Below are positions 3,364-52,494 of a stretch of DNA of 53,281 nt, one piece after another. The notes below the pieces were generated by a model. The model was given only the letters and a program-made list of their open reading frames with translations, ran no database searches and was not told the DNA's origin. Within the stretch, counting starts at the first letter, position 1. Each line of letters begins with the position of its first letter. Where the stretch lies: the NCBI GenBank assembly GCA_041739675.1, contig JBGSNL010000009.1, forward strand, positions 1 through 53,281, written 5' to 3'. This DNA is from a bacterium (GTDB lineage: Bacteria > UBA10199 > 2-02-FULL-44-16 > DYJF01). The translations under genes and the position numbers were made by a program.

Positions 3364-3933
3364 CTATTTCTTTTTTCTCAACGCAGGGCAGTCGTTGCAT
3401 GCCTGGGTCGTGCTTTTCGGAGTTGAATAATCGGCGCTGTCTTCCGATGAAGCCGCCGAACTATTTTCGCTGACCTTTGCAGGTGGCGGCGCTGAACCGC
3501 CGTCCCAGATCCAGTTCCCGCCCGTCATAGTTGCAACGCGATTTCTCTGCGGCCCTTCGTTGATTTCAAAAATGATGTCCTGATTCGGATTGAAACGTTC
3601 GGCGATCGCCGGTGCCGCGCTGTCAAGGCGCCGGGAAAGCTCGCGCCCGAAGATTGCGGTCTGCCGCGAAATCAGATCGCGCATCGCATTCCGGTTTTCC
3701 ATCAGGCGCCGGGAAAGAACAGTGACCTCCACATTGATCTTTTCGCCGCCAGTTATTCTCGGCTCGTACGCGACTTTTTCAGATGAGAGATAAAGACTGA
3801 CAATATCAACCTGCGTAGATAACTGCTGGCCCTCGCTTACCATTATCCTCTTGTCCATGTCCGATCTTCTGATCTCGGAAGACGCGGGCAATGCGACAAA
3901 AAGCGCCAGGACGACAAATACTATCCTCTTCAT
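3364..3933 (-). CDS. Hypothetical exported protein
   Basis: Signal peptide MKRIVFVVLALFVALPASS after a GGGGG RBS; low-complexity tail with CxxC. Confidence 0.65.
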   Translation of the reverse strand: MKRIVFVVLALFVALPASSEIRRSDMDKRIMVSEGQQLSTQVDIVSLYLSSEKVAYEPRITGGEKINVEVTVLSRRLMENRNAMRDLISRQTAIFGRELSRRLDSAAPAIAERFNPNQDIIFEINEGPQRNRVATMTGGNWIWDGGSAPPPAKVSENSSAASSEDSADYSTPKSTTQACNDCPALRKKK

Positions 3934-4076
3934 AAGACCCCCTGTTCCATCCCCCACGCCGGTGATGCCCCGACGTCACGAGTTTGTCAATATTGAAGGA
4001 TATGTCTGCAAGAGTGATTGAAGATCAGGATTATGATTAGGACTAAGATCGATGATCTGAGATTGAGGATCGAAGA

Positions 4077-4412
4077 TCATCGTAGCTTGTAGAGCATCTT
4101 GACCACCTGAAGAAGCTGGTCCTGAAGATAAAAAGCATCAGGTTCAGTCATCAGCCTCAGTGCTAACGCGACATCAATGCAAGATGCCGATTCAGCGGCA
4201 GACGCCCTTGCGATTGCAAAAAACCTCGCTCTCTCTGGTATGCCTTTTCTCGCATTTCCCTCAGCAATGTTGAGGAGCACACTTGAAATGGCCCTCTTGA
4301 GCTGATCTTCAAGATAATAAGTACCTTTTGGCCATTTGGCCACAATGCCCGGCACCCTTTTTGCCGCCCCAAGGGCCATCTCGTAACATCTCAGCTTCTG
4401 ATGATTGAACAT
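4077..4412 (-). CDS. Four helix bundle protein (TIGR02436/23S rRNA-IVP family), subtype A
   Basis: DQLKRAISSVLLNIAEG, RFFAIARASAAE; start MFNHQK at 4412 with AGGAGG RBS. Confidence 0.88.
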   Translation of the reverse strand: MFNHQKLRCYEMALGAAKRVPGIVAKWPKGTYYLEDQLKRAISSVLLNIAEGNARKGIPERARFFAIARASAAESASCIDVALALRLMTEPDAFYLQDQLLQVVKMLYKLR

Positions 4413-4416
4413 AAAA

Positions 4417-4492
4417 ACCTCCTTTTTGTGTTTTTTGGCCTCATGGCTCTCACCCTCATGGGAGGCATGAGGCCAAAAAACACACAGGAGGT
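4417..4492. repeat. Long inverted repeat filling the divergent intergenic region
   Basis: TGTGTTTTTTGGCCTCATG (4427-4445) / CATGAGGCCAAAAAACACA (4466-4484), plus outer ACCTCCT/AGGAGGT, which are the two RBSs. Confidence 0.95.
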
Positions 4493-4497
4493 ATTCC

Positions 4498-4842
4498 ATG
4501 AATCATCAGAAGCTGAGATGCTATGAGGTCTTACTAGGTACCGCAAAAAGGTTGCCGGGCATCGTGGCTAGAATGCCAAGAGGACATAATTATATAGTAG
4601 ATCAGCTGAGAAGGGCTCTATCCAGCGGGATACTCAACTTATCTGAGGGAAATGGGAGAACGTCGGCAAAAGAGAGGGCGAGGTTTTTTGACATATCACT
4701 GGCATCTATTGCCGAATCGTCATCGGCTATTGATGTAATGCAGGCGTTCAACTTGATATCAAGACAGACAGGAGACGAATTCAAATCCCAACTGCGAATC
4801 GCCTATGCCATGATCGTCAATCTCAAGAAAGCTGGATTCTGA
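4498..4842 (+). CDS. Four helix bundle protein, subtype B
   Basis: DQLRRALSSGILNLSEG, RFFDISLASIAE. Confidence 0.88.
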   Translation: MNHQKLRCYEVLLGTAKRLPGIVARMPRGHNYIVDQLRRALSSGILNLSEGNGRTSAKERARFFDISLASIAESSSAIDVMQAFNLISRQTGDEFKSQLRIAYAMIVNLKKAGF

Positions 4843-4889
4843 GATCTTAATCTACATCCAGATCGTAATCGACAATTCTAAGCTCTTGT

Positions 4890-6968
4890 CTATTGTACAA
4901 TTGGTTTGAGTTTTACGATAACAGGATTGAACTCGTTGACCGACAGCGTGAGCTTGAGCTCCGTAGGCTGATAGCCGGGCTTTTCCAAGCGGATCCTGTA
5001 GCTCCCGAGCGGAAGATCGTGAAGGATGGCGGGTGTCGGCTGCGTGACCTGCTTGTCGTTGACCATGATGCGCGCCCCTTCAGGCTCCGTATATACATAG
5101 ATCACCGATCTGAAGGGCGATATCTGCTGAAAGAGTGAATTGGCCTCTCTCTTCGTATTGTCATCAGTCGCCTTTAGCATCACCTCGACCAGAAGCGGCA
5201 ACGCCTCACCCATCTTCTGGCCTGCGGCATATGCAGCAACCATTCCGAGCATCGCTGGATATTTCCATTCCTCTGTAGTTCTGGCCTGCGCAAAATATTG
5301 AAGCGCCCTGTCGATGTCGCCCAAGCTCAAGTAACACCGCCCAAGAAGATAGTTCGACTGCGCGACCTCCGTTGGCGCGGGATTCGAGGCCAAAGCCTGC
5401 GCCAGCTCGTTTATCGCCTCCTGCCAGACCTGGCGGTTCATCGCGATCTTCGCGTTGTTGATGTGCGCGCCGGCAACCGAAGTTTCAAGTTTCACAGTTC
5501 CGACAAAAGGAGTGTTGATATCCACTTTAAGCGACTGCGTGTGCTCGAAATATCCCTCTTTTCTGAGAGTGAGAGTGTGATCGCCGAGCGGGAAAAGCCC
5601 TTGATACGGCGTTTTGCCCATGGGCTTACCGTCGATGAAGACGTCGGCGTTGGGCGGCTCCGATTTTATGTCCACAGGGAACACTTTGAGATCCTCGTCT
5701 TTCACATCGAGAAGGTATTGCGGGCTGTCTTCCGCGATATGAAACTCGCGCCTGAAAACGATATCCTGCACGTATGTCTGAGATTGGCCCAATTGCCGCG
5801 CACGCCTGAGCTCCACTATGTAGCGGCCGAACGGTATGTAGATCGGCTTTTGCATTACCACTTCGCTGAGCTTTGCCGGACGCTCCTTGAAGCGGTCGTA
5901 CTCGAAATTGCCTTCAAGATAAAACTGCGTGTCGCGCGGGAGGTTGACAACCTTTATCATCCCGATGGGGGCGCGGAAGAGAATGGGAACGACCGATTGT
6001 CCCGCCTCCACCGTGAAATTGACGGGGAGCGTGTAGCGCTCGTTAAACTCCGGCAACATGAAAGTAGCTTCCGCCGTGTAATTCTTGCCGGGCTCCAGCT
6101 CCACATTCACGCGGAGCGGAGTTTTTCCAAGCTCCTTATCCTGAAAAACAACGATGGCAGGCAAGGGGCTGGACGCGAAATCCAAAAATACCGGAATCGT
6201 CTGCGGTTTGGGCGGCGCGGGCGGGACCGTCGGAACGGCCGGCACTGTAGGGACAGTTCCCTCCGCAGGGGGCACTGTTCCCTCGGGAGGCTCTGCCGGC
6301 TCCCCAACAATGGGGGCTGTCCCCTTCGGATGCAAAAAATATCTCGTGGTGAGATAGCCCACCATACCGATAACACAGACGGCCAAAATTCCCGCCATTA
6401 TGAGCTTCCGGGTCTTTGATGGTGCCGGCGCCTTTGCCGGCTCCACAATGCCGTCGGGCAGGGCCCTCTCCTCTTCCATGCTCTCGGTCATGGCCTCGGC
6501 TCCCGCGGGCATCTCCTGCATCACGGTCTTTTCGCTTATTGCAACCTCGGGCGGGAGGACCATCTCCTCCTCGACTGAAACTTCCTGAGTAATGAGGCGG
6601 AAGAGATAGATGCCGGTCCTTATCACGTCTTTGTGGCCGATCACGACCGCGTCGGTGACCGGTCTGCCGTTGATGGATGTACCGTTCTTGCTGCCCAGAT
6701 CTCTCACGATCCAGCCGGTATCGGTTTTTTCAATCTCGGCGTGGTGGCGGGAAACACTTTGATCTTCCATCCGGACCGCGGAACCGACCGCGCGCCCGAT
6801 CGCGTTTTTTCCCTCTTGCAGGGTGAAATACGAACCGGCGTGAGGGCCTTCGATGAGGACGAGATAAGGCGGTTTTTTGGGCGCGCGCGGAGGAGTGCCC
6901 TCCTCTTCCTCTTCAGGGCCGCGGATCACGGTGCGGTCTTCGGGTTTTGTGTCGGTTGGCTCGGCCAT
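4890..6968 (-). CDS. Membrane-anchored FHA + PEGA + TPR protein
   Basis: FHA motifs GR...SRHHA...DLGSKNGT, one TM segment, PEGA-like repeats (SEPPNADVFIDGK, TEPEGARIMVND), TPR-like helices; start MAEPTD at 6968. Confidence 0.82.
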   Translation of the reverse strand: MAEPTDTKPEDRTVIRGPEEEEEGTPPRAPKKPPYLVLIEGPHAGSYFTLQEGKNAIGRAVGSAVRMEDQSVSRHHAEIEKTDTGWIVRDLGSKNGTSINGRPVTDAVVIGHKDVIRTGIYLFRLITQEVSVEEEMVLPPEVAISEKTVMQEMPAGAEAMTESMEEERALPDGIVEPAKAPAPSKTRKLIMAGILAVCVIGMVGYLTTRYFLHPKGTAPIVGEPAEPPEGTVPPAEGTVPTVPAVPTVPPAPPKPQTIPVFLDFASSPLPAIVVFQDKELGKTPLRVNVELEPGKNYTAEATFMLPEFNERYTLPVNFTVEAGQSVVPILFRAPIGMIKVVNLPRDTQFYLEGNFEYDRFKERPAKLSEVVMQKPIYIPFGRYIVELRRARQLGQSQTYVQDIVFRREFHIAEDSPQYLLDVKDEDLKVFPVDIKSEPPNADVFIDGKPMGKTPYQGLFPLGDHTLTLRKEGYFEHTQSLKVDINTPFVGTVKLETSVAGAHINNAKIAMNRQVWQEAINELAQALASNPAPTEVAQSNYLLGRCYLSLGDIDRALQYFAQARTTEEWKYPAMLGMVAAYAAGQKMGEALPLLVEVMLKATDDNTKREANSLFQQISPFRSVIYVYTEPEGARIMVNDKQVTQPTPAILHDLPLGSYRIRLEKPGYQPTELKLTLSVNEFNPVIVKLKPIVQ

Positions 6969-7084
6969 TTTGGATTCAGTACCATAAATCGAGCCGGGCG
7001 TAAACACTTTGGAAAATAGAAAAAATTGGAACGATAGTTCCCGATCTGGATTTGGTTCCGGAGCCGGAGATCATAGATTCCAGA

Positions 7085-7420
7085 TTATCTTTTGAGCCTC
7101 ATGATCATCGCATATGATATTCTCAGCTCCGACTTGATCTCCTCATTGATCATAGCCGTGATGTATCCATAGGCATTGATGATATCCAAGGCAGATGCCG
7201 TCTCCGCAATAGACGCCAGCGATATATCAAAGAACCTGTTTCTCTCCTTCAGCGATCTCCTGGAATTGCCCTCCGATAAATTCAATATCGCACTTCCCAA
7301 TGCTCTTTTGAGCTGATCTTCCAGAAAATAGTTACCCTTGGGCATCATTTTAATAAGCGTTGGCAACTTTCTTGCGACACCTAGCAGCAAACAGTAGCAT
7401 TTCAGCTTTTGGTGATTCAT
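7085..7420 (-). CDS. Four helix bundle protein, subtype B
   Basis: DQLKRALGSAILNLSEG, RFFDISLASIAE; start MNHQK at 7420 with AGGAGG RBS. Confidence 0.88.
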   Translation of the reverse strand: MNHQKLKCYCLLLGVARKLPTLIKMMPKGNYFLEDQLKRALGSAILNLSEGNSRRSLKERNRFFDISLASIAETASALDIINAYGYITAMINEEIKSELRISYAMIMRLKR

Positions 7421-7425
7421 GTGAC

Positions 7426-7498
7426 ACCTCCTATGGTTTTTGGCCTCTTGCCTCCCCACCCTTATGAGGAGGCAAGAGGCCAAAAACCATAAAGGAGG
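7426..7498. repeat. Long inverted repeat filling the divergent intergenic region
   Basis: TATGGTTTTTGGCCTCTTGCCTCC (7432-7455) / GGAGGCAAGAGGCCAAAAACCATA (7468-7491), 12-nt loop, outer CCTCCT/AGGAGG. Confidence 0.95.
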
Positions 7499-7503
7499 AT
7501 TTT

Positions 7504-7839
7504 ATGTTCAACCACCAAAAGCTGAAATGCTACGAGTATGCGCTGGATGCGGCAAGAAAGGTGCCAACGCTAATCAATAAATGGCCAGCGGGGTACGCAT
7601 ATCTGGAAGATCAGCTGAAGAGAGCGGCGTCTAGTGTTGTATTGAACATTTCGGAGGGCAATTACAGATATTCGGTAAAGGAAAGAGCCAGATTCTTCAT
7701 AATCGCAAGGGCATCTGCGGGAGAGGTATCAGCTATCTTGGATATCGCTCATGCCTATCGTCTCATCTCAGATGAAGATTACAGCTCACTTCAGAGCACA
7801 CTCCTCAGCATTGTAAAGATGTTGTACCGGCTCAGGTGA
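7504..7839 (+). CDS. Four helix bundle protein, subtype A
   Basis: DQLKRAASSVVLNISEG, RFFIIARASAGE; about 62% identical to 4077-4412 by manual count. Confidence 0.88.
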   Translation: MFNHQKLKCYEYALDAARKVPTLINKWPAGYAYLEDQLKRAASSVVLNISEGNYRYSVKERARFFIIARASAGEVSAILDIAHAYRLISDEDYSSLQSTLLSIVKMLYRLR

Positions 7840-7987
7840 TCCTAATCGCTCTTTTCTTAATCCTAATCTTCGTCCTAATCGTTGTTGTTGCTTTGGGATA
7901 CTCCAGCCATTGCACAATCCTCTCGATTACGCTCTAAGTCACCTAAAGCTTGATTTTTAGGTCCAAAATCATCATACTCGCTTACCA

Positions 7988-9070
7988 ATGAAGAGTTTGC
8001 CGCGTATTTTGAAACTTGCCTTGTTCATCCTTGCAATCCCCGCTGTGTCTGCCGCTGCCGGGCGCGAGTGCATCAACTGGCCCAAAATCATGAGCCAGCA
8101 GGCGATAGGCGGCGCCACGTCCGGCAAAATCGTGGTCGCGGAGTCTTTCACCGATTACACAAAAGTTGCGGGAGACGACTGGCTCTCCGCGGGCCTCCGA
8201 GATCTCATCGCAACCATGGTGGCCCAAAGCAAGAGTGTACGCGTCTTTGCGGGCTCCAATGCCGTCTATAATCCGGATGCAAAAAATCCCGCGTTCATAA
8301 TATCGGGGATGTTCCAGCATCTCGAAGGAGGCTTGAGGATTTTTGTCAAATTGATGAAGGGGGAAGACAAGAGTCTCGTCTCGCAATATGAGGTGCTGGT
8401 CCCCTATCCTGAAAGCAGCGAAATATTCACGCGCTTCACCGATGTCGCAAGACAGATATGGGCGACAATTCAGGCGGGCGGCGACGAATCGCGCCTGGCC
8501 ATGGTGCGCGATGCAACCCCGTCGACCCGCGCCTATGAGAGCTACGTCAAGGGAAGGCAGGCGCTGGAAACCTACAAAATGGCAGATATGGAAGTGGCCA
8601 AGACGTGGTTCGAGCAGGCCAAGCGCAATGATTACAGATCCCCTCTGGGTTATCAGGGGATGATAGATCTCTACACGTTTCTTGGATTTTATCACAAGCA
8701 GCGGCACGAACCTTTCGGCTCCTATTTCCAGCAGGCCGAGCAGGAGCTTGCGAATATGACAAGGCTCGCAAAGCGCTTGCCGCTTGTCGTATTGATGGCA
8801 AAAAAACCGACGAAGAAGGAACAAGAGACGGTGAAGCTGGCGAACCGTTTCCTTCTCGATCATGCCTCTTTCAACGAGGGGCTCATCGCCGCTGAAGCGG
8901 GCAACTGGAAAGCGGCGGCCGAGGCGTTCCAGAGTGCGGTCGATTACGTTCCGGAGGACGCGATCGCGTGGTACCATCTTGCGCGCGCCTATGAGAATCT
9001 GGGCAACGCCGCGGAATCGTCAAAAGCCCTGCAGAAGGCATACGAGGTGAACCCGTGCGTGGAAAAATGA
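7988..9070 (+). CDS. Exported TPR-containing protein with TolB-N/CsgG-like N-terminal region
   Basis: Signal peptide, DWLSAGLRDLI...ISGMFQ..LRIFVKL pattern, C-terminal TPRs. Confidence 0.65.
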   Translation: MKSLPRILKLALFILAIPAVSAAAGRECINWPKIMSQQAIGGATSGKIVVAESFTDYTKVAGDDWLSAGLRDLIATMVAQSKSVRVFAGSNAVYNPDAKNPAFIISGMFQHLEGGLRIFVKLMKGEDKSLVSQYEVLVPYPESSEIFTRFTDVARQIWATIQAGGDESRLAMVRDATPSTRAYESYVKGRQALETYKMADMEVAKTWFEQAKRNDYRSPLGYQGMIDLYTFLGFYHKQRHEPFGSYFQQAEQELANMTRLAKRLPLVVLMAKKPTKKEQETVKLANRFLLDHASFNEGLIAAEAGNWKAAAEAFQSAVDYVPEDAIAWYHLARAYENLGNAAESSKALQKAYEVNPCVEK

Positions 9071-10359
9071 AAAAGCGGCATGTGGCATATGGCATGTGGC
9101 ATGTGGGCCGATTAACCTTTGCCCTCTTTTTTCTTCTTGTCTGTCTCTTCACGATGCAAGCACATGCCAAGAAAAAAATTACAAAGCCCACGGATCGCGC
9201 CGTATACCACAACAATCAGGGTGTGTCTTATCTCAACAAGAACGATCTTGAGCGCTCGGAATTCGAGCTCAAAACCGCAATAGAGCTTGCACCCGAATAC
9301 GTCGAGGCGTTCAACAATCTGGGCACTGTCTATAAACTCAAAGGCGATCTTCCTGCGGCAGCAGCGCAATTCAGGCGGGCCATCGATCTCGATAAGGATT
9401 ATGCCAGCGCATACAGCAATCTCGGGGCCGTCTATCTCGCCCAGGGAAACGTGGACGGCGCGATAAATACGATAAAAAAGGGTTTGAAGAAGGACGGAAC
9501 GATAGCGGACGCCCACTACAATCTGGGCCTCGCGTATCTTGAGAAAACAAAGACCGACAAGAGCAAGAGCTACATCGGCATGGCGGAGGCCGAATTCATA
9601 AAAGCGACTGAGCTCAATCCCAATCTCGTGCACGTCCACAAGACTCTGGCGCAGGTGTACAAATCGACCGGCGACTACGATCTTGCGATAATCAGATACC
9701 GTCTGGCGCTCGGAAACGAACCCGCGAACGCGGATCTCTGGAACCAGCTGGGCCAGGTATATCTTGAAAAGGGCGACCAGTTTCAGGCGGAAAACTGCTT
9801 TCAGAAAGCGGTGGAGCTCGGCGCCGCTCAGCCGAAACCGGGGCAGGAAAGCGGAATGGAGATGGGCCTCTTCTACATAAAAGAAAAAAGGTATCAGGAC
9901 GCCGCGAACGAATTCAAGGCGATCATCGAAAAAAATCCGTTGAACGACCAGGCATGGTACCGTATGGGAACCGCGTATCTTTTCTGGGGCGACGACGAGC
10001 GCGCGAAGAAAAACAACTCCGAAGCTACAAGGCTCTACAATGAGGCGGTCGCTGCATTGAAGAAAGCCAAAGAGGTTAACCCGCAATCGGCGGACGCGGC
10101 GTACAATTTGGGCTTGACTTATCTCAAGCAGGGCAAAACACTCGAGGCGCAAAAGGAATGGGAATACACGGTGACAATCTCCCCAAAGCACGCACGCGCC
10201 CTTTACAATCTGGGGCTTCTCTATCAGAAGATGGGGCGCACAGATGACGGTTTCAACATGCTTTGCCGGTTCACGTCCGTCGCCGGAAATCAGTATCCGG
10301 TCGAACTTTCGGCGGCAAGGCAGGCCATAGAGGTGAGCAAATTCAAATGCCAAAACTGA
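9067..10359 (+). CDS. Exported multi-TPR protein
   Basis: Repeated TPR consensus (AFNNLG, AYSNLG, AHYNLG, AAYNLG, ALYNLG); signal peptide; ATGA overlap with the upstream stop. Confidence 0.85.
   Translation: MKKRHVAYGMWHVGRLTFALFFLLVCLFTMQAHAKKKITKPTDRAVYHNNQGVSYLNKNDLERSEFELKTAIELAPEYVEAFNNLGTVYKLKGDLPAAAAQFRRAIDLDKDYASAYSNLGAVYLAQGNVDGAINTIKKGLKKDGTIADAHYNLGLAYLEKTKTDKSKSYIGMAEAEFIKATELNPNLVHVHKTLAQVYKSTGDYDLAIIRYRLALGNEPANADLWNQLGQVYLEKGDQFQAENCFQKAVELGAAQPKPGQESGMEMGLFYIKEKRYQDAANEFKAIIEKNPLNDQAWYRMGTAYLFWGDDERAKKNNSEATRLYNEAVAALKKAKEVNPQSADAAYNLGLTYLKQGKTLEAQKEWEYTVTISPKHARALYNLGLLYQKMGRTDDGFNMLCRFTSVAGNQYPVELSAARQAIEVSKFKCQN
9077..9104 (+). repeat. Four tandem heptamers GGCATRT
   Basis: GGCATGT GGCATAT GGCATGT GGCATGT. 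Confidence 0.9.
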
Positions 10360-11384
10360 TTGTCAACGAACGGGGCAAGAAACACGAGTGGGCGCACCAG
10401 TGTCTGGAAGATGAGATCTCCATCGGACGCATGGAGGAAAATATCATCACCCTTCCGACACAGGGTGTGTCGCGCCAACACGCCAAGGTGGTCCGTGCCG
10501 ATGAAAATTTCTTCATTGTGGATCTCGGGAGCGGAAACGGCACTCTTCTGAACGGCACGATGGTCCGTCCCAACGAGAAAAACCTTCTGCGCAACAACGA
10601 CCTCATTTCGATCGACGCGTTCGACCTGAGATTCTATCTGACCGACGAGGCGCTTGAGAGTTCATATAATGAAGAGATAACCGAGAGCGACATCCTTGAG
10701 GTGAAGCTCTTGAAGAAAGTCATAAGGGCGCTGGACAAGGAAACGGTTCCCAGCCTTGAAGTTTTAAACGGCGTAGCAGAAGGGAAGAGAATTTATTTAT
10801 CAGACGAGATAGTGGAGCTCGTCATCGGCCGCGATCCGGCCTGCGATTTCCCCATCAACGAGTTCGTCATATCGCGCAAACACGCCAAGATTTCAAAAAG
10901 GTGGGGCGGAATCGTAATCAGGGATCTTGAAAGCAAAAACGGCACGTTCATAAACAACCGCCGCGTCGTGGAGGAGTTCTTGCACGACGGCGACCGCATG
11001 GCCCTGGGAACGATCGTCCTCATGTTCAGGAATCCGCAGGAGATAAATCTCGCACAGCTAACGGAAAAAATACCTCCCAAGAGAACTCCGGCGATGATCA
11101 GGCCGGACGAGATACCGATACCTGAAGAGGAGGAGGAAGCGCCGCACGAAGCACCCGCCGAAGAGGAAGCACAGCCAGAGGAGATGGCCCCCGAGGAAGA
11201 AGCATCCGAAGAGGAATGGGAAGAAGGTGAAGAAAGCGTCGCGCGGCCGCAACCCTATCCCCTTCACACACCCAAGAAACCGCTTCTCAAACGTTTTTCG
11301 CCCGTCGAGATAGGCATGATAGGCTTAGGCTCACTTGTGCTCATCTTCGCGTTTATCACGGTAGTCAATCTGATATTCGAGTAA
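10347..11384 (+). CDS. Double-FHA-domain protein with acidic linker and C-terminal TM anchor
   Basis: Two FHA signatures (IGR...SRQHA...DLGSGNGT; IGR...SRKHA...DLESKNGT), Glu-rich linker, terminal hydrophobic helix; start MPKLIV. Confidence 0.85.
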   Translation: MPKLIVNERGKKHEWAHQCLEDEISIGRMEENIITLPTQGVSRQHAKVVRADENFFIVDLGSGNGTLLNGTMVRPNEKNLLRNNDLISIDAFDLRFYLTDEALESSYNEEITESDILEVKLLKKVIRALDKETVPSLEVLNGVAEGKRIYLSDEIVELVIGRDPACDFPINEFVISRKHAKISKRWGGIVIRDLESKNGTFINNRRVVEEFLHDGDRMALGTIVLMFRNPQEINLAQLTEKIPPKRTPAMIRPDEIPIPEEEEEAPHEAPAEEEAQPEEMAPEEEASEEEWEEGEESVARPQPYPLHTPKKPLLKRFSPVEIGMIGLGSLVLIFAFITVVNLIFE

Positions 11385-11464
11385 AAAATCACTTCCTTTC
11401 CATGTGTCATGGGGTTTCCCTTGCGTGAGGCCTAGGCCCTACGTCTCAGAGTTTTGACTCTTGT

Positions 11465-13624
11465 TTACACGTTTGCGGCTTGGAGGGCTTCCTGCGGGAT
11501 ACCCACGCGGGCGATCGGCTGGATGCGCAGATTTTCGGCAAGTTCCTGATATGACAGGACGGAAAGCTGCGGGAACTCAAGCTCCACGATTTTTCTGAAA
11601 TAGCGTCTGATCTCCGCCGTCGTTAAAATTACCGGCGGGCGAGCACCGGGCGGGAACGGATGAGAGGCGATCTCCTTGCCCACCGCCTCGATTATCTCTT
11701 GCGTGGTCTCAGGTTCCAGCGCCAGATAATTTCCTTTCTCCGTCCTTCTTATTGCGTTCTTCACAAGATCCTCGACGTCGGCATCCAGAAGATAAACCGC
11801 TAAAGTGTTCGCTGCGCCGGCGTACTTGTGCGTGATGTAGCGCTTGAGGCCCGCCCTCACATGCTCGGTGAGTGTCAAGGTGTCGCGCTCTATCTCGCCC
11901 CATTGCGCGAGAGTCGAAAAGATCGTCTTCAAATCCCTGATCGCCACGTCCTCCTGCACCAGCCGCTGGAATATCTCGGCCAGCTGCAAGAGCGTGATGA
12001 CCTTGGGAACGAGCTCCTTGACGAGCGCTGGATGTGATTTTTCAAGCTCTGTCAACATCGTCTGCACTTCCTGCAACCCCAAAAATTCGTGCGCGTGTTT
12101 TCTCAAGACAAATGAAAGATGCAAAATCAGATACTCGGCGGTGTCCCACATTCTGAAACCGGCCTGAGTTGCAACGTCCTTGAACTGGTCTGATATCCAC
12201 GTCACGACCGACCCGTCGATCGGATGGATCGTCTCCGTTCCAGTGATATTGAAGAGCTGCAACTGTTCGAGCGGCTCGCCCACAAGGATGTTGCCCTTCA
12301 TGACGCGCCCCTGCGCCACAGGGACTTCGTTGATATTGATGACGTAGGATTCCGGCTCCATGTCGACCGTCTGGCCGCGAACCTGAATGCCCGGAAAATT
12401 GACGCCCAGCTCATAATAGAGGCCGTGCCTCAAAAGCGGAATGAGTTCGTTGATGAAGCGGCCGCCGTCCTGCGCGTCGTCCACAAACGGGATGATGGCG
12501 CTACCAACCTCAAGCGATATGGGCGACGGCATGATGAAGGGCAAAACGTCGCCGTGTTTTTTCACCGCCTTGCGCACGACGTCCTGCTTGGGCGTATCCA
12601 TAATCTCTTTCACCACCTGCTTTTTGGATTTGATAAGCAGCGCGGCTACACCGCCCACCACGATGCCCATTATAATGAAGGGGATCTTCGGCAGCCCCGG
12701 GATTATCGCCATGATGCCCAAGAGCACGGCCGCAATGATGAGCGCCTTGGGATAGGCGGTCATCTGTGTCACGATTTCACGGCCGAGATTCGACGATTCC
12801 CCTTCGGACGCGACGCGCGTCACGACGATACCGGCCGAAACCGATATGATGAGGGCCGGTATCTGCTGCACGAGACCGTCGCCGATCGTCAAGAGCGAAT
12901 AAACCTGAATCGCCTCCACGAAGGTCATTCCGCGCTGGGCAACACCGATGATGAAACCTCCGACGATGTTGATGAGAATGATTATCATGCCGGCAATGGC
13001 GTCGCCCTTCACGAACTTCATGGCGCCGTCCATCGCGCCGTAAAATTGCGATTCGCGCTGGAGCTGCATGCGGCGCTGTATGGCCTGTTCCATGTTGATG
13101 ATGCCGGCCCTTAAATCCGCGTCGATCGACATCTGTTTTCCGGGCATTGCGTCCAGAGTGAAGCGCGCGCCCACTTCAGAAACACGCTCGGCGCCCTTTG
13201 CGATAACGATAAAGTTGATGAGGGTGACGATGAGGAACAAAATACCGCCCACGATGTAATTCCCGCGGACGACGAAAGAACCGAAGGTCCTCACCACCTC
13301 TCCGGCATTGGCCTGCGCAAGAATGAGCCTTGTCGTAGATATGTTAAGAGAGAGGCGGTAGAGCGTGATTATGAGCAGGATCGTGGGGAAAGATGCGATG
13401 CGCAGCGTTTCCGTAATGTAGAGTGCAACTAGTATGATGATCACGGCCAATGTGATCTGGATCGTGAGCAAAATATCCAGAAGCCACGTGGGCAACGGGA
13501 TGATCATCATGCCCACAACGGCGATGACCAGCACAGCGAGGACAACGTCGCTGTACTTCGTCAGCATTTCGTTGAAATTTGCGAAAGAAAAGCCGACTCG
13601 TTGTGCAGGGGCCTCATCTCCCAT
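11465..13624 (-). CDS. sctV: Type III secretion export gate protein (SctV/FlhA, FHIPEP family), probably non-flagellar
   Basis: RFTLDAMPGKQMSIDADL, FYGAMDGAMKFVKGDAIAG, LTIGDGLV; C-terminal VLSYQEL is more SctV-like than FlhA-like. Confidence 0.85.
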   Translation of the reverse strand: MGDEAPAQRVGFSFANFNEMLTKYSDVVLAVLVIAVVGMMIIPLPTWLLDILLTIQITLAVIIILVALYITETLRIASFPTILLIITLYRLSLNISTTRLILAQANAGEVVRTFGSFVVRGNYIVGGILFLIVTLINFIVIAKGAERVSEVGARFTLDAMPGKQMSIDADLRAGIINMEQAIQRRMQLQRESQFYGAMDGAMKFVKGDAIAGMIIILINIVGGFIIGVAQRGMTFVEAIQVYSLLTIGDGLVQQIPALIISVSAGIVVTRVASEGESSNLGREIVTQMTAYPKALIIAAVLLGIMAIIPGLPKIPFIIMGIVVGGVAALLIKSKKQVVKEIMDTPKQDVVRKAVKKHGDVLPFIMPSPISLEVGSAIIPFVDDAQDGGRFINELIPLLRHGLYYELGVNFPGIQVRGQTVDMEPESYVININEVPVAQGRVMKGNILVGEPLEQLQLFNITGTETIHPIDGSVVTWISDQFKDVATQAGFRMWDTAEYLILHLSFVLRKHAHEFLGLQEVQTMLTELEKSHPALVKELVPKVITLLQLAEIFQRLVQEDVAIRDLKTIFSTLAQWGEIERDTLTLTEHVRAGLKRYITHKYAGAANTLAVYLLDADVEDLVKNAIRRTEKGNYLALEPETTQEIIEAVGKEIASHPFPPGARPPVILTTAEIRRYFRKIVELEFPQLSVLSYQELAENLRIQPIARVGIPQEALQAANV

Positions 13625-51850: not shown

Positions 51851-52411
51851 ATGCCTGCGGAACATATGATTTCGACAGAATGTGTTGAACGCAAAATATT
51901 GTTGATCCGTGGCGAAAAGGTCATTCTCGATTTCGACCTTGCCACTCTTTACGGAATAGATACGAGGACATTAATTCAGGCGATCAAACGAAATTTAAAT
52001 CGCTTTCCATCTGATTTTTTATTCCAGCTTAATAGACAGGAACTTCTCCTTTTAAGATCGCAATTAGCGATCCCTATTGAAATGAAAAGCAGAGGTGGGC
52101 GAAGAACATTGCCCTACGCGTTCACAGAACACGGCGTAATAATGGCGGCGACCGTGCTCAATTCCCCGCAGGCAATTCAGGCAAGCGTCTATGTTGTCAG
52201 GGCATTTGTGAAATTACGAAAGATGATCGCAACTCACCGCGAACTGGCGCATAAGTTAGATGATCTTGAACGCAATGTTGCGACGCATGACAAGGCAATA
52301 TGCTCACTTTTCGATGCGATAAGAAAACTAATGTCTTATCCCGAAAAGCCCCGCCGCAAAATTGGATTTGATTTGAGCGGAAGCAAAATGAATAAAAGTG
52401 ATCAACGATAA
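51851..52411 (+). CDS. ORF6N (KilA-N-like) domain DNA-binding protein
   Basis: IRGEKVILDFDLATLY, KRNLNRFPSDFLFQL, PYAFTEHGV, VVRAFV, RKIGF. Confidence 0.92.
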   Translation: MPAEHMISTECVERKILLIRGEKVILDFDLATLYGIDTRTLIQAIKRNLNRFPSDFLFQLNRQELLLLRSQLAIPIEMKSRGGRRTLPYAFTEHGVIMAATVLNSPQAIQASVYVVRAFVKLRKMIATHRELAHKLDDLERNVATHDKAICSLFDAIRKLMSYPEKPRRKIGFDLSGSKMNKSDQR

Positions 52412-52494
52412 AGGCGATTAGGATTACGATTACGATAAAAGCGATTGGCGATTGGCGGGCGCCACCCATAAAGAATGCACCAACCCATTCCTCA

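Follow-up and report, generated by a model that had tools for sequence, protein, structure and literature searches.

What does it mean when two neighbouring genes that face each other come to resemble one another even at silent positions, and yet stay two different proteins? This question is raised by a 53,281-nt bacterial stretch of contig JBGSNL010000009.1 (assembly GCA_041739675.1; "the window" below is this whole stretch), in which two cassettes flank one host FHA/PEGA/TPR gene. Each cassette is a head-to-head pair of four-helix-bundle genes of the PF05635 family, one A-type and one B-type, around a central stem. A first-pass annotation proposed that the two arms co-vary within each cassette, so that the whole unit of ~0.8 kb is an imperfect hairpin, and offered two explanations, namely arm-to-arm gene conversion opposed by selection for two different proteins, or selection to keep the arms paired in a folded single strand of DNA or RNA.

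The reading preferred here, to which a probability of roughly 0.6 is assigned, is that the cassette is a likely mobile two-paralog element, that its stem seeds a DNA foldback copying one arm onto the other, and that purifying selection holds A and B apart. The foldback would arise at a fork or as a cruciform, and short-patch copying between the arms would spread outward from the stem, presumably by replication template switching or by mismatch repair in the hairpin or cruciform. Selection would remove the copies that erase subtype residues, and the cassette would move by recombination within its repeat tails. Template switching is a known route of inverted-repeat correction in the available text of PMC5941160 and PMC6649704.

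The features of the two cassettes are as follows (strand + or -).

4010..4076, -: A-tail of cassette 1, imperfect 6-7-nt repeats (TAATC/GATC type) past the A1 stop; outer end approximate
4077..4412, -: A1, A-type four-helix-bundle gene, 111 amino acids (aa) (PF05635, TIGR02436, structure model)
4418..4422, -: putative GGAGG ribosome-binding site of A1 (from sequence)
4427..4484, no strand: central hairpin of cassette 1, 23-bp stem (4427-4449/4462-4484) with 12-nt tip TCACCCTCATGG at 4450-4461
4487..4491, +: putative GGAGG ribosome-binding site of B1 (from sequence)
4498..4842, +: B1, B-type four-helix-bundle gene, 114 aa (PF05635, TIGR02436, B class)
4843..4885, +: B-tail of cassette 1; outer end approximate, near-identical copies part from ~4852-4870
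4890..7007, -: host FHA/PEGA/TPR gene between the cassettes, outside the element (profile search)
7030..7084, -: B-tail of cassette 2; outer end approximate
7085..7420, -: B2, B-type four-helix-bundle gene, 111 aa (PF05635, TIGR02436)
7432..7491, no strand: central hairpin of cassette 2, perfect 24-bp stem with 12-nt tip CCACCCTTATGA at 7456-7467
7504..7839, +: A2, A-type four-helix-bundle gene, 111 aa (PF05635, TIGR02436)
7840..7885, +: A-tail of cassette 2; outer end approximate

The two window cassettes thus have the same centre, a stem of 23-24 bp with a 12-nt tip. In all four genes a putative GGAGG site is placed at the base of the stem, and the stop codon is followed by a tail of imperfect 6-7-nt repeats. 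The stem of cassette 1 contains one G-G mismatch (4446/4465), and is perfect in a 95%-identical copy of this cassette on contig C49. The A-tail of cassette 1 matches the C49 copy out to ~4010-4016, and the contigs of runs X1 and X2 have loose ends at 4016.

The words reported as shared within each cassette were recovered, each once per arm. In cassette 1 they are AATCATCAGAAGCTGAGATG (+4501/-4406), GCAAAAAGG.TGCCGGGCAT.GTGGC (+4543/-4364) and, distally, ATTGATGT (+4729/-4178). In cassette 2 they are CACCAAAAGCTGAAATGCTAC (+7513/-7414), GCAAGAAAG.TGCCAACGCT (+7552/-7375) and TTGGATATC (+7738/-7189), and in the alignment ATGCCTAT follows TTGGATATC after 4 nt in both genes. When the four genes are aligned by codon and only codons for the same residue are considered, nine synonymous informative sites group by cassette, one by subtype and two crosswise. 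The amino-acid patterns of the same alignment are 13 by subtype, eight by cassette and two crosswise. Between cassette 2 and its related copy on C72 in the same genome, 31 sites have changed in both genes, and 13 of these moved from one shared base to another.

Both units fold more stably than their shuffled versions (z of -13.5 and -22.2), and none of 20 shuffles was as good. The proposed hairpin, however, holds for ~0.6 kb of the ~0.85 kb unit only and was overstated by about a quarter, since near-register pairing ends ~300 nt on either side of the centre and the final 25 codons are only 33-37% identical between the arms. Past those ~300 nt, a 60-nt stretch (about codons 86-110) contains 0-2 near-register pairs in all eight folds, and pairing of the tails is variable.

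Co-variation across the family

From relatives and metagenomes, 78 distinct whole cassettes were assembled (86 pairs less eight exact duplicates). The main set consists of the 70 with less than 90% identity, eight of the 78 being dropped at 90% or above; half-cassettes at contig ends and copies with a lesion at the centre were left out of the pair set. A held-out set comprises 15 further cassettes from three other genomes, one of which repeats an earlier row (five of 20 stretches were not full pairs); the repeat, L192 of L124, was counted in the held-out wobble tally only. All 78 cassettes consist of one A and one B gene, with a spacer of 81-97 nt in 75 of them, and A and B form old, separate protein clades.

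The co-variation seen in the window is general across the 70 cassettes. Given the same residue, partners in cis share the codon in 2540 of 3918 cases (0.648), compared with 0.423 for all trans pairs, 0.566 for the B gene of the nearest relative and 0.378 expected from the cassette's own codon usage. The mismatch at four-fold sites is 769/1770 (0.43) in cis, 0.65 in trans and 0.62 in trans pairs matched for the G+C content of third codon positions (GC3), and the proportion of synonymous differences (pS) is 0.58 in cis and 0.77 in trans. Among 35 disjoint pairs of cassettes, the synonymous sites group 195 times by cassette, 35 times crosswise and 153 times by subtype; the cassette grouping exceeds the crosswise one in 31 pairs, with the reverse in two and a tie in two. 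Within the genome that carries the window (G000), the same codon is used in 167 of 268 cases (0.62) as compared with 0.43, and in the held-out genome G058 (11 cassettes) in 315 of 598 (0.53) as compared with 0.43, with 28 synonymous sites by cassette and nine crosswise. In trees of the C-terminal half, the protein splits into A and B with one label change, and the third positions need 26.

The expectation that synonymous sites should group by cassette more often than by subtype stands for the window but not for close relatives, in which the subtype grouping is more frequent. Such a subtype excess is expected if copying lags behind mutation, and the proper null is therefore the comparison of cassette with crosswise sites (195 versus 35).

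Could the pattern reflect shared codon bias, shared ancestry through a fresh duplication in each lineage, protein co-evolution or assembly chimeras? The GC3 of A and B is correlated at 0.89, which favours such an origin. The excess nevertheless survives the GC3-matched, own-codon-usage and same-genome controls, so that codon bias is ruled out as its explanation. Moreover, the two clades are too old and separate for fresh duplication, synonymous sites cannot be moved by protein co-evolution, no run of identical bases common to the two arms is longer than 36, and the pattern is also seen in the cassettes of a genome in three contigs, G007. Explanations of this kind are considered highly improbable.

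The genome G000 has 20 such genes and a remnant, which fall into six whole pairs, five halves located at the ends of contigs, one pair with a replaced centre and one lone B. The subfamily is found in 16 of the 93 genomes of the phylum, and in four of its 24 families. Close named records carry the depositor titles Bdellovibrio sp., uncultured Pseudomonadota and Myxococcales bacterium, and a search of viral contigs gave no relative.

Copying or selection for pairing

The coupling of the arms is strongest at the stem. Of the pairs in the central stems, 1191/1260 are Watson-Crick, 18 are G·T and 14 are A·C, and complementarity is 0.93 in cis versus 0.40 in trans. The ratio of copying to mutation, as roughly estimated from a simple equilibrium, is ~33 in the stem and then 5.7, 1.9, 2.2, 0.8 and 0.4 outward along the genes, or, by zone, about 6 for codons 2-20, about 2 for codons 21-60 and below 1 beyond. 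Copying appears to be bidirectional, B having taken the base of A 113 times and A that of B 140 times. Among 314 four-fold sites that matched in the ancestor, 11 acquired one and the same new base on both arms, and a hand-worked calculation from the single-arm rate gives ~1.6 expected. In the stem columns of 19 close pairs, 44 changes are on both arms, 25 on one, nine are side-specific and 11 are of other kinds. Eighteen of the 44 come from the pair L021/L051, in which the genes are 95% identical and the stem has been replaced and lengthened on both arms.

The second explanation of the first-pass annotation, selection for a paired RNA or single strand, may be stated for RNA as follows: read-through transcripts form a long duplex that hides both ribosome-binding sites or is excised by RNase III, and compensatory selection keeps the pairing. 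The strong folds of both units, the position of both GGAGG sites at the base of the stem and the partner duplex, which as RNA is more stable than that with the nearest relative in 56 of 70 cassettes, are all as it would have them; the changes, furthermore, are scattered rather than in tracts, and members of the family in ribosomal RNA (rRNA) are excised by RNase III, as stated in the available text of PMC4990558. An RNA helix should, however, leave an excess of G·U on one strand, and no such excess was found, either by strand (synonymous wobbles, 411 on the B-sense and 377 on the A-sense strand) or by orientation of the tip (358 versus 366; 118 versus 117 in the held-out set). The two strands fold equally well (-326 versus -328), and wobble accounts for just 1.4% of stem pairs, a small share for an RNA helix. 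Nor was the orientation of the cassettes found to be linked to host transcription (5 versus 6; from crude calls of open reading frames (ORFs), with 25 A-sides and 22 B-sides of 70 uncalled), and of the 32 cassettes for which these crude calls cover both neighbours, 19 are flanked by a convergent or divergent gene pair. A block replaced in mirror fashion on the two arms would also be hard to reach by single compensations. Transitions among four-fold mismatches, finally, show no excess (0.308 in cis, 0.315 in trans). Selection for pairing is thus unsupported by these data, and the RNA duplex is regarded as improbable.

The absence of G·U and strand bias, the fading of the coupling outward, the replacement of a stem on both arms and the inverted tip described below together favour arm-to-arm copying at the DNA level over selection for an RNA duplex. 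The data fit the first explanation, that of conversion opposed by selection for two proteins. The opposing selection is visible in both genes, with ratios of nonsynonymous to synonymous rates (dN/dS) of 0.094 for A and 0.101 for B in 18 pairs. At eight subtype positions, A and B have the same residue in only 0-6 of the 70 cassettes. Many coding sites do track the partner gene; residue 17 is identical in both partners in 96% of cassettes versus 35% in trans.

Tip, tails and likely movement

The consensus of the tip is asymmetric, CC(A/G)CCC-N3-TGA on one strand, with a C×A mismatch at its base (T·G on the other strand). The C at this position is present in 59 of 63 tips aligned by anchoring on the TGA side. 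The direction of the tip relative to A and B is 33:32, with five unclassed, and differs in six of 18 classed close pairs. Between L086 and L087, the orientation of the tip is the sole difference over the first 3 kb. When cassette 2 is compared with its C72 copy, the inversion relative to A and B is exact and confined to the inner 10 nt of the tip, inside a 2-bp repeat, a length too short for homologous recombination. Since both ribosome-binding sites are at the base and the C×A / T·G position at the tip is conserved, the stem and tip would also be functional, probably as a binding site of the A and B proteins.

At eight loci (L010, L061, L062, L063, L064, L072, L149 and L191) the centre is deleted or replaced. 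This is a typical fate of extruding palindromes, and, like the inverted tips, it is taken as a sign that the DNA folds. In five cassettes of three genomes (L010 = G000:C53:10980-11100, L061, L062, L064 and L072), the hairpin and both N-termini have been swapped for a gene-less tail pair, which is always oriented opposite to the host cassette.

The cassette is likely mobile, possibly by way of a circle, as judged from sites that lack it, copies that are nearly identical, and tail junctions that are permuted or duplicated. The site of cassette 2 is empty in G001, G002, G003 and G005, where the FHA/PEGA/TPR gene directly adjoins the TPR gene found at 7988 in the window, and that of cassette 1 is filled in G001 and in L078 but vacant in G002 and G005. 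At the cassette-2 site, L078 carries a B gene of a different lineage. In addition to the C49 copy, cassette 1 has a near-identical half on C24, both in other contexts. The ends of the cassettes are ragged repeat tails. In 20 of 67 cassettes the B-tail is followed by a reverse-complement A-tail (controls, 0/62; same orientation, 10/67), and A itself is tailless in many of them. The tail junction is duplicated at both ends in four of 58 full-flank cassettes (88, 52, 50 and 18 nt exact; trans control 0.5%); 54 of the 58 are without a direct repeat of at least 14 nt, a limit that leaves room for the shorter target duplications of an insertion sequence or MITE, and an outward inverted match of at least 14 nt is found in one.

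The B-tail followed by a reverse-complement A-tail, and the duplicated junction, are in the order expected from a circle, which brings in a further explanation: the cassette may travel as a single-stranded circle folded into a rod, with the central hairpin at one end and the tail junction at the other. In the rod, mismatches between A and B would be repaired and pairing would be selected, processing of the tip would invert the loop, and re-entry would proceed by recombination at the tail junction. The permuted junctions (20/67 versus 0/62 control stretches) with A often lacking its own tail, which foldback copying explains less well, would follow from such a circle, as would the four of 58 cassettes with the whole junction doubled, the junction copies that bracket a 175-aa gene on C11, the inversion within a 2-bp repeat between cassette 2 and C72, and even the absent strand bias, provided that both strands circulate. 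Yet the 54 cassettes without a long direct repeat, the absence of a transition excess among mismatches, and the fact that chromosomal tandem duplication followed by deletion can also permute ends all count against it, as do the absence of tail-to-tail or run-back joints in the contigs of four runs (although contigs would drop rare forms) and of a dedicated recombinase or replicase beside or tracking the cassettes. It is considered unlikely. Equally unlikely is its fullest form, a transposase-free mobile element of ~0.85 kb moving as a self-complementary single-stranded circle, with the genes paired along the rod and corrected each cycle, with a ring of A and B, like that of the Avd protein (see below), binding the invertible tip, and with integration, cargo included, through the tail junction.

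Several observations weigh against foldback copying in a mobile cassette. The closest pairs (0.89-0.90 identity) show no excess yet, with 10 sites by cassette and seven crosswise; this fits a lag under either copying or compensation. The pace of change in the stems is below that of synonymous sites (379 of 468 stem columns have not changed, at pS ~0.35), so that the stem would be under selection of its own, beyond neutral copying. The shared changes are not clustered, with 88 switches versus 88.0 after shuffling (p 0.53) and an adjacency of 70 versus 67.7-69.3. As conversion in long tracts should cluster changes, only short-patch repair, or selection that purges long tracts, fits. The contigs of the four runs contain neither a joint skipping the whole cassette nor a run-back or tail-to-tail joint, an empty site or a flipped tip, and the X4 contig over centre 1 has just two differences. 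No dedicated recombinase, replicase or other movement enzyme was found beside the cassettes or tracking them. Finally, the cassettes are kin and pooled p-values overstate the significance, and for this reason more weight is given to the paired and same-genome counts.

A reverse transcriptase and a Y1 transposase were considered as partner enzymes and rejected, as neither was found to track the cassettes in the genomes searched. The reverse transcriptase family PF00078 was not found in G000 (94.6% complete), G005, G011, G015, G019 or G040, and the neighbours of the cassettes are host genes. A PF01797 gene lies 3 kb from the window cassettes; this family is present in 35 of 41 genomes, whether or not these have cassettes, and the carriers G001 (83% complete) and G040 gave no match to it.

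Some further arrangements were observed. In L006 (G000:C72:3005-3161), the A stop directly abuts an A gene that is partly deleted and belongs to another lineage, as if the cassette had landed in or replaced another. In L005:1390-2100 (G000:C11:20591-21327), the two junction copies bracket the 175-aa gene, which has no Pfam match and lies beside the B gene, as a putative cargo module. L011:1560-3040 (G000:C25) consists of a lone B with its hairpin, an A gene that breaks off within a few codons, and, as a third gene, one of the ORF6N family (PF10543), with three tail-like hairpins between. Gene-less tail hairpins or solo tails are found in G000 at C34:10374-10504, C79:10100-10201, C37:12178-12216 and C88:1935-1976. 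In L082, as in the window, a cassette is found upstream of the FHA gene, but it is of another lineage and the host gene past A is a different one, by independent insertion at a favoured site or by rearrangement between cassettes.

Proteins and known systems

All four proteins exceed the cut-offs of both families, with PF05635 scores of 74.7 (A1), 51.8 (B1), 58.5 (B2) and 82.5 bits (A2) against a cut-off of 33.8, and TIGR02436 scores of 68, 55, 54.9 and 76.2 bits in the same order against 24. They thus belong to the same family as Xcc0516 (2GSC) and BT_0352 (2RLD). The model of A1, the only protein modelled, has a pLDDT of 96.6 and four long helices (8-24, 32-54, 58-84 and 90-109). Its best structural match is Xcc0516 (TM 0.87-0.91, rmsd 1.2-1.4), followed by BT_0352 and Avd. 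A retains family-like residues and B is derived; both subtypes are basic, with mean net charges of +5.6 and +6.2. Known structures of the family are homopentamers of single genes in the available text of PMC4990558. In contrast to such single-gene proteins, two fixed subtypes are present here, always as an inverted pair.

Avd, of the diversity-generating retroelements (4DWL, 8UB7), has the same fold as the A1 model (TM 0.79), and the cassette proteins are basic; the identity, however, is 10-11%, and no reverse transcriptase was found in the six genomes named above. The link between Avd and the four-helix-bundle family has been noted (PMC10053308, in part available), and the Avd pentamer is described in the accessible text of bioRxiv 10.1101/2023.10.23.563531 as gripping a stem-loop with flipped-out bases. 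This grip is a lead on what A and B may do with the tip. By analogy with Avd, A and B may act jointly as a basic nucleic-acid-binding oligomer, and the strict pairing, the basic charge and the grip of the Avd pentamer on a stem-loop suggest that both might form one ring that binds the tip. Fused two-domain relatives (74 of the best 150 matches) were rejected as A+B fusions, both domains being A-like in 70 of the 74. These proteins (P0013, P0016, P0018 and 71 others; 200-300 aa) contain two fused PF05635 domains whose conserved motifs decay complementarily, the N domain retaining R39/E73 and the C domain an N-x-x-E-G-N motif and F63, in the manner of a pseudo-heterodimer.

With the intervening sequences of 23S rRNA (Coxiella S23p, as far as described in PMC4990558), the cassettes have in common the protein family, a patchy distribution, a foldback and the short tandem repeats next to the ORF. 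They differ in lying between protein-coding genes and not in rRNA, and in that the two ORFs themselves form the stem, the best stem being central rather than terminal. The cassette ORFs, moreover, have a strong GGAGG and a dN/dS of ~0.1, whereas the Coxiella ORF is decaying according to the same source. The available part of PMC3936711 notes only co-occurrence with cas genes for the family.

Bidirectional homogenisation in cis is shared with the concerted evolution of inverted repeats, namely template-switch correction in proteobacteria (PMC5941160) and the coding palindromes of nematomorph mitochondria (PMC6649704), and palindromes of chloroplasts and sex chromosomes are also arm-homogenised, as cited in the accessible text of these two papers. 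The arms of those systems, however, are short and non-coding or end up near-identical. Here they are two whole paralogous genes in a small multi-copy cassette, with a lasting identity of 60% and the subtype residues held apart.

REPINs with RAYT are also foldback DNA with co-varying arms, but the arms of the cassettes are coding genes, the stems are only 40% complementary between cassettes and no tyrosine transposase was found to track them. Integron cassettes with attC recombine at a structure and not at a sequence, the flip/flop hairpins of parvoviruses have an invertible tip, and Obelisk RNAs form a coding rod; the cassette is known here as chromosomal DNA. A search of the literature that reached few subscription journals found no paper on the twin or head-to-head form, mutual copying, the invertible tip or the permuted tails. 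The protein family and arm-to-arm correction are already known, and, judged from that search, the twin cassette, two lasting subtypes under mutual copying, the invertible tip and the permuted tails appear to be new.

Bacteria very commonly carry four-helix-bundle genes that have repeat tails. The sequence of the twin form would record its own DNA mechanics, in the form of a gradient of copying, inverted tips, deletions at the centre and ends that are permuted, and the cassette, at less than 1 kb and clonable whole, offers a compact test system. It would be an unusually clean natural case of paralogs kept at ~60% identity by opposed copying and selection, measurable in ~90 copies, and a rare natural contest in which the copying of sequence is set against selection, within a likely mobile element without a known moving enzyme.

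A scan for sigma-70-like promoters found two versus 3.6 expected and none in the centres of the cassettes, and the Rfam scan of 3900-8000 gave no family at the gathering score, with sub-threshold hairpin matches only. A Y1 tyrosine transposase-like gene (PF01797) at 178-1077 comes after a hairpin at 114-156. The region 10263-13624 contains, as host context, an FHA/YscD-like gene beside TPR genes and a SecA-like gene, together with a 719-aa gene which we take to be FlhA/SctV-like (a type III export gate protein). Finally, a solo repeat of the A-tail type is found at 52407-52435, after a 186-aa gene (region 51851-52450) that by eye resembles the ORF6N gene of L011.

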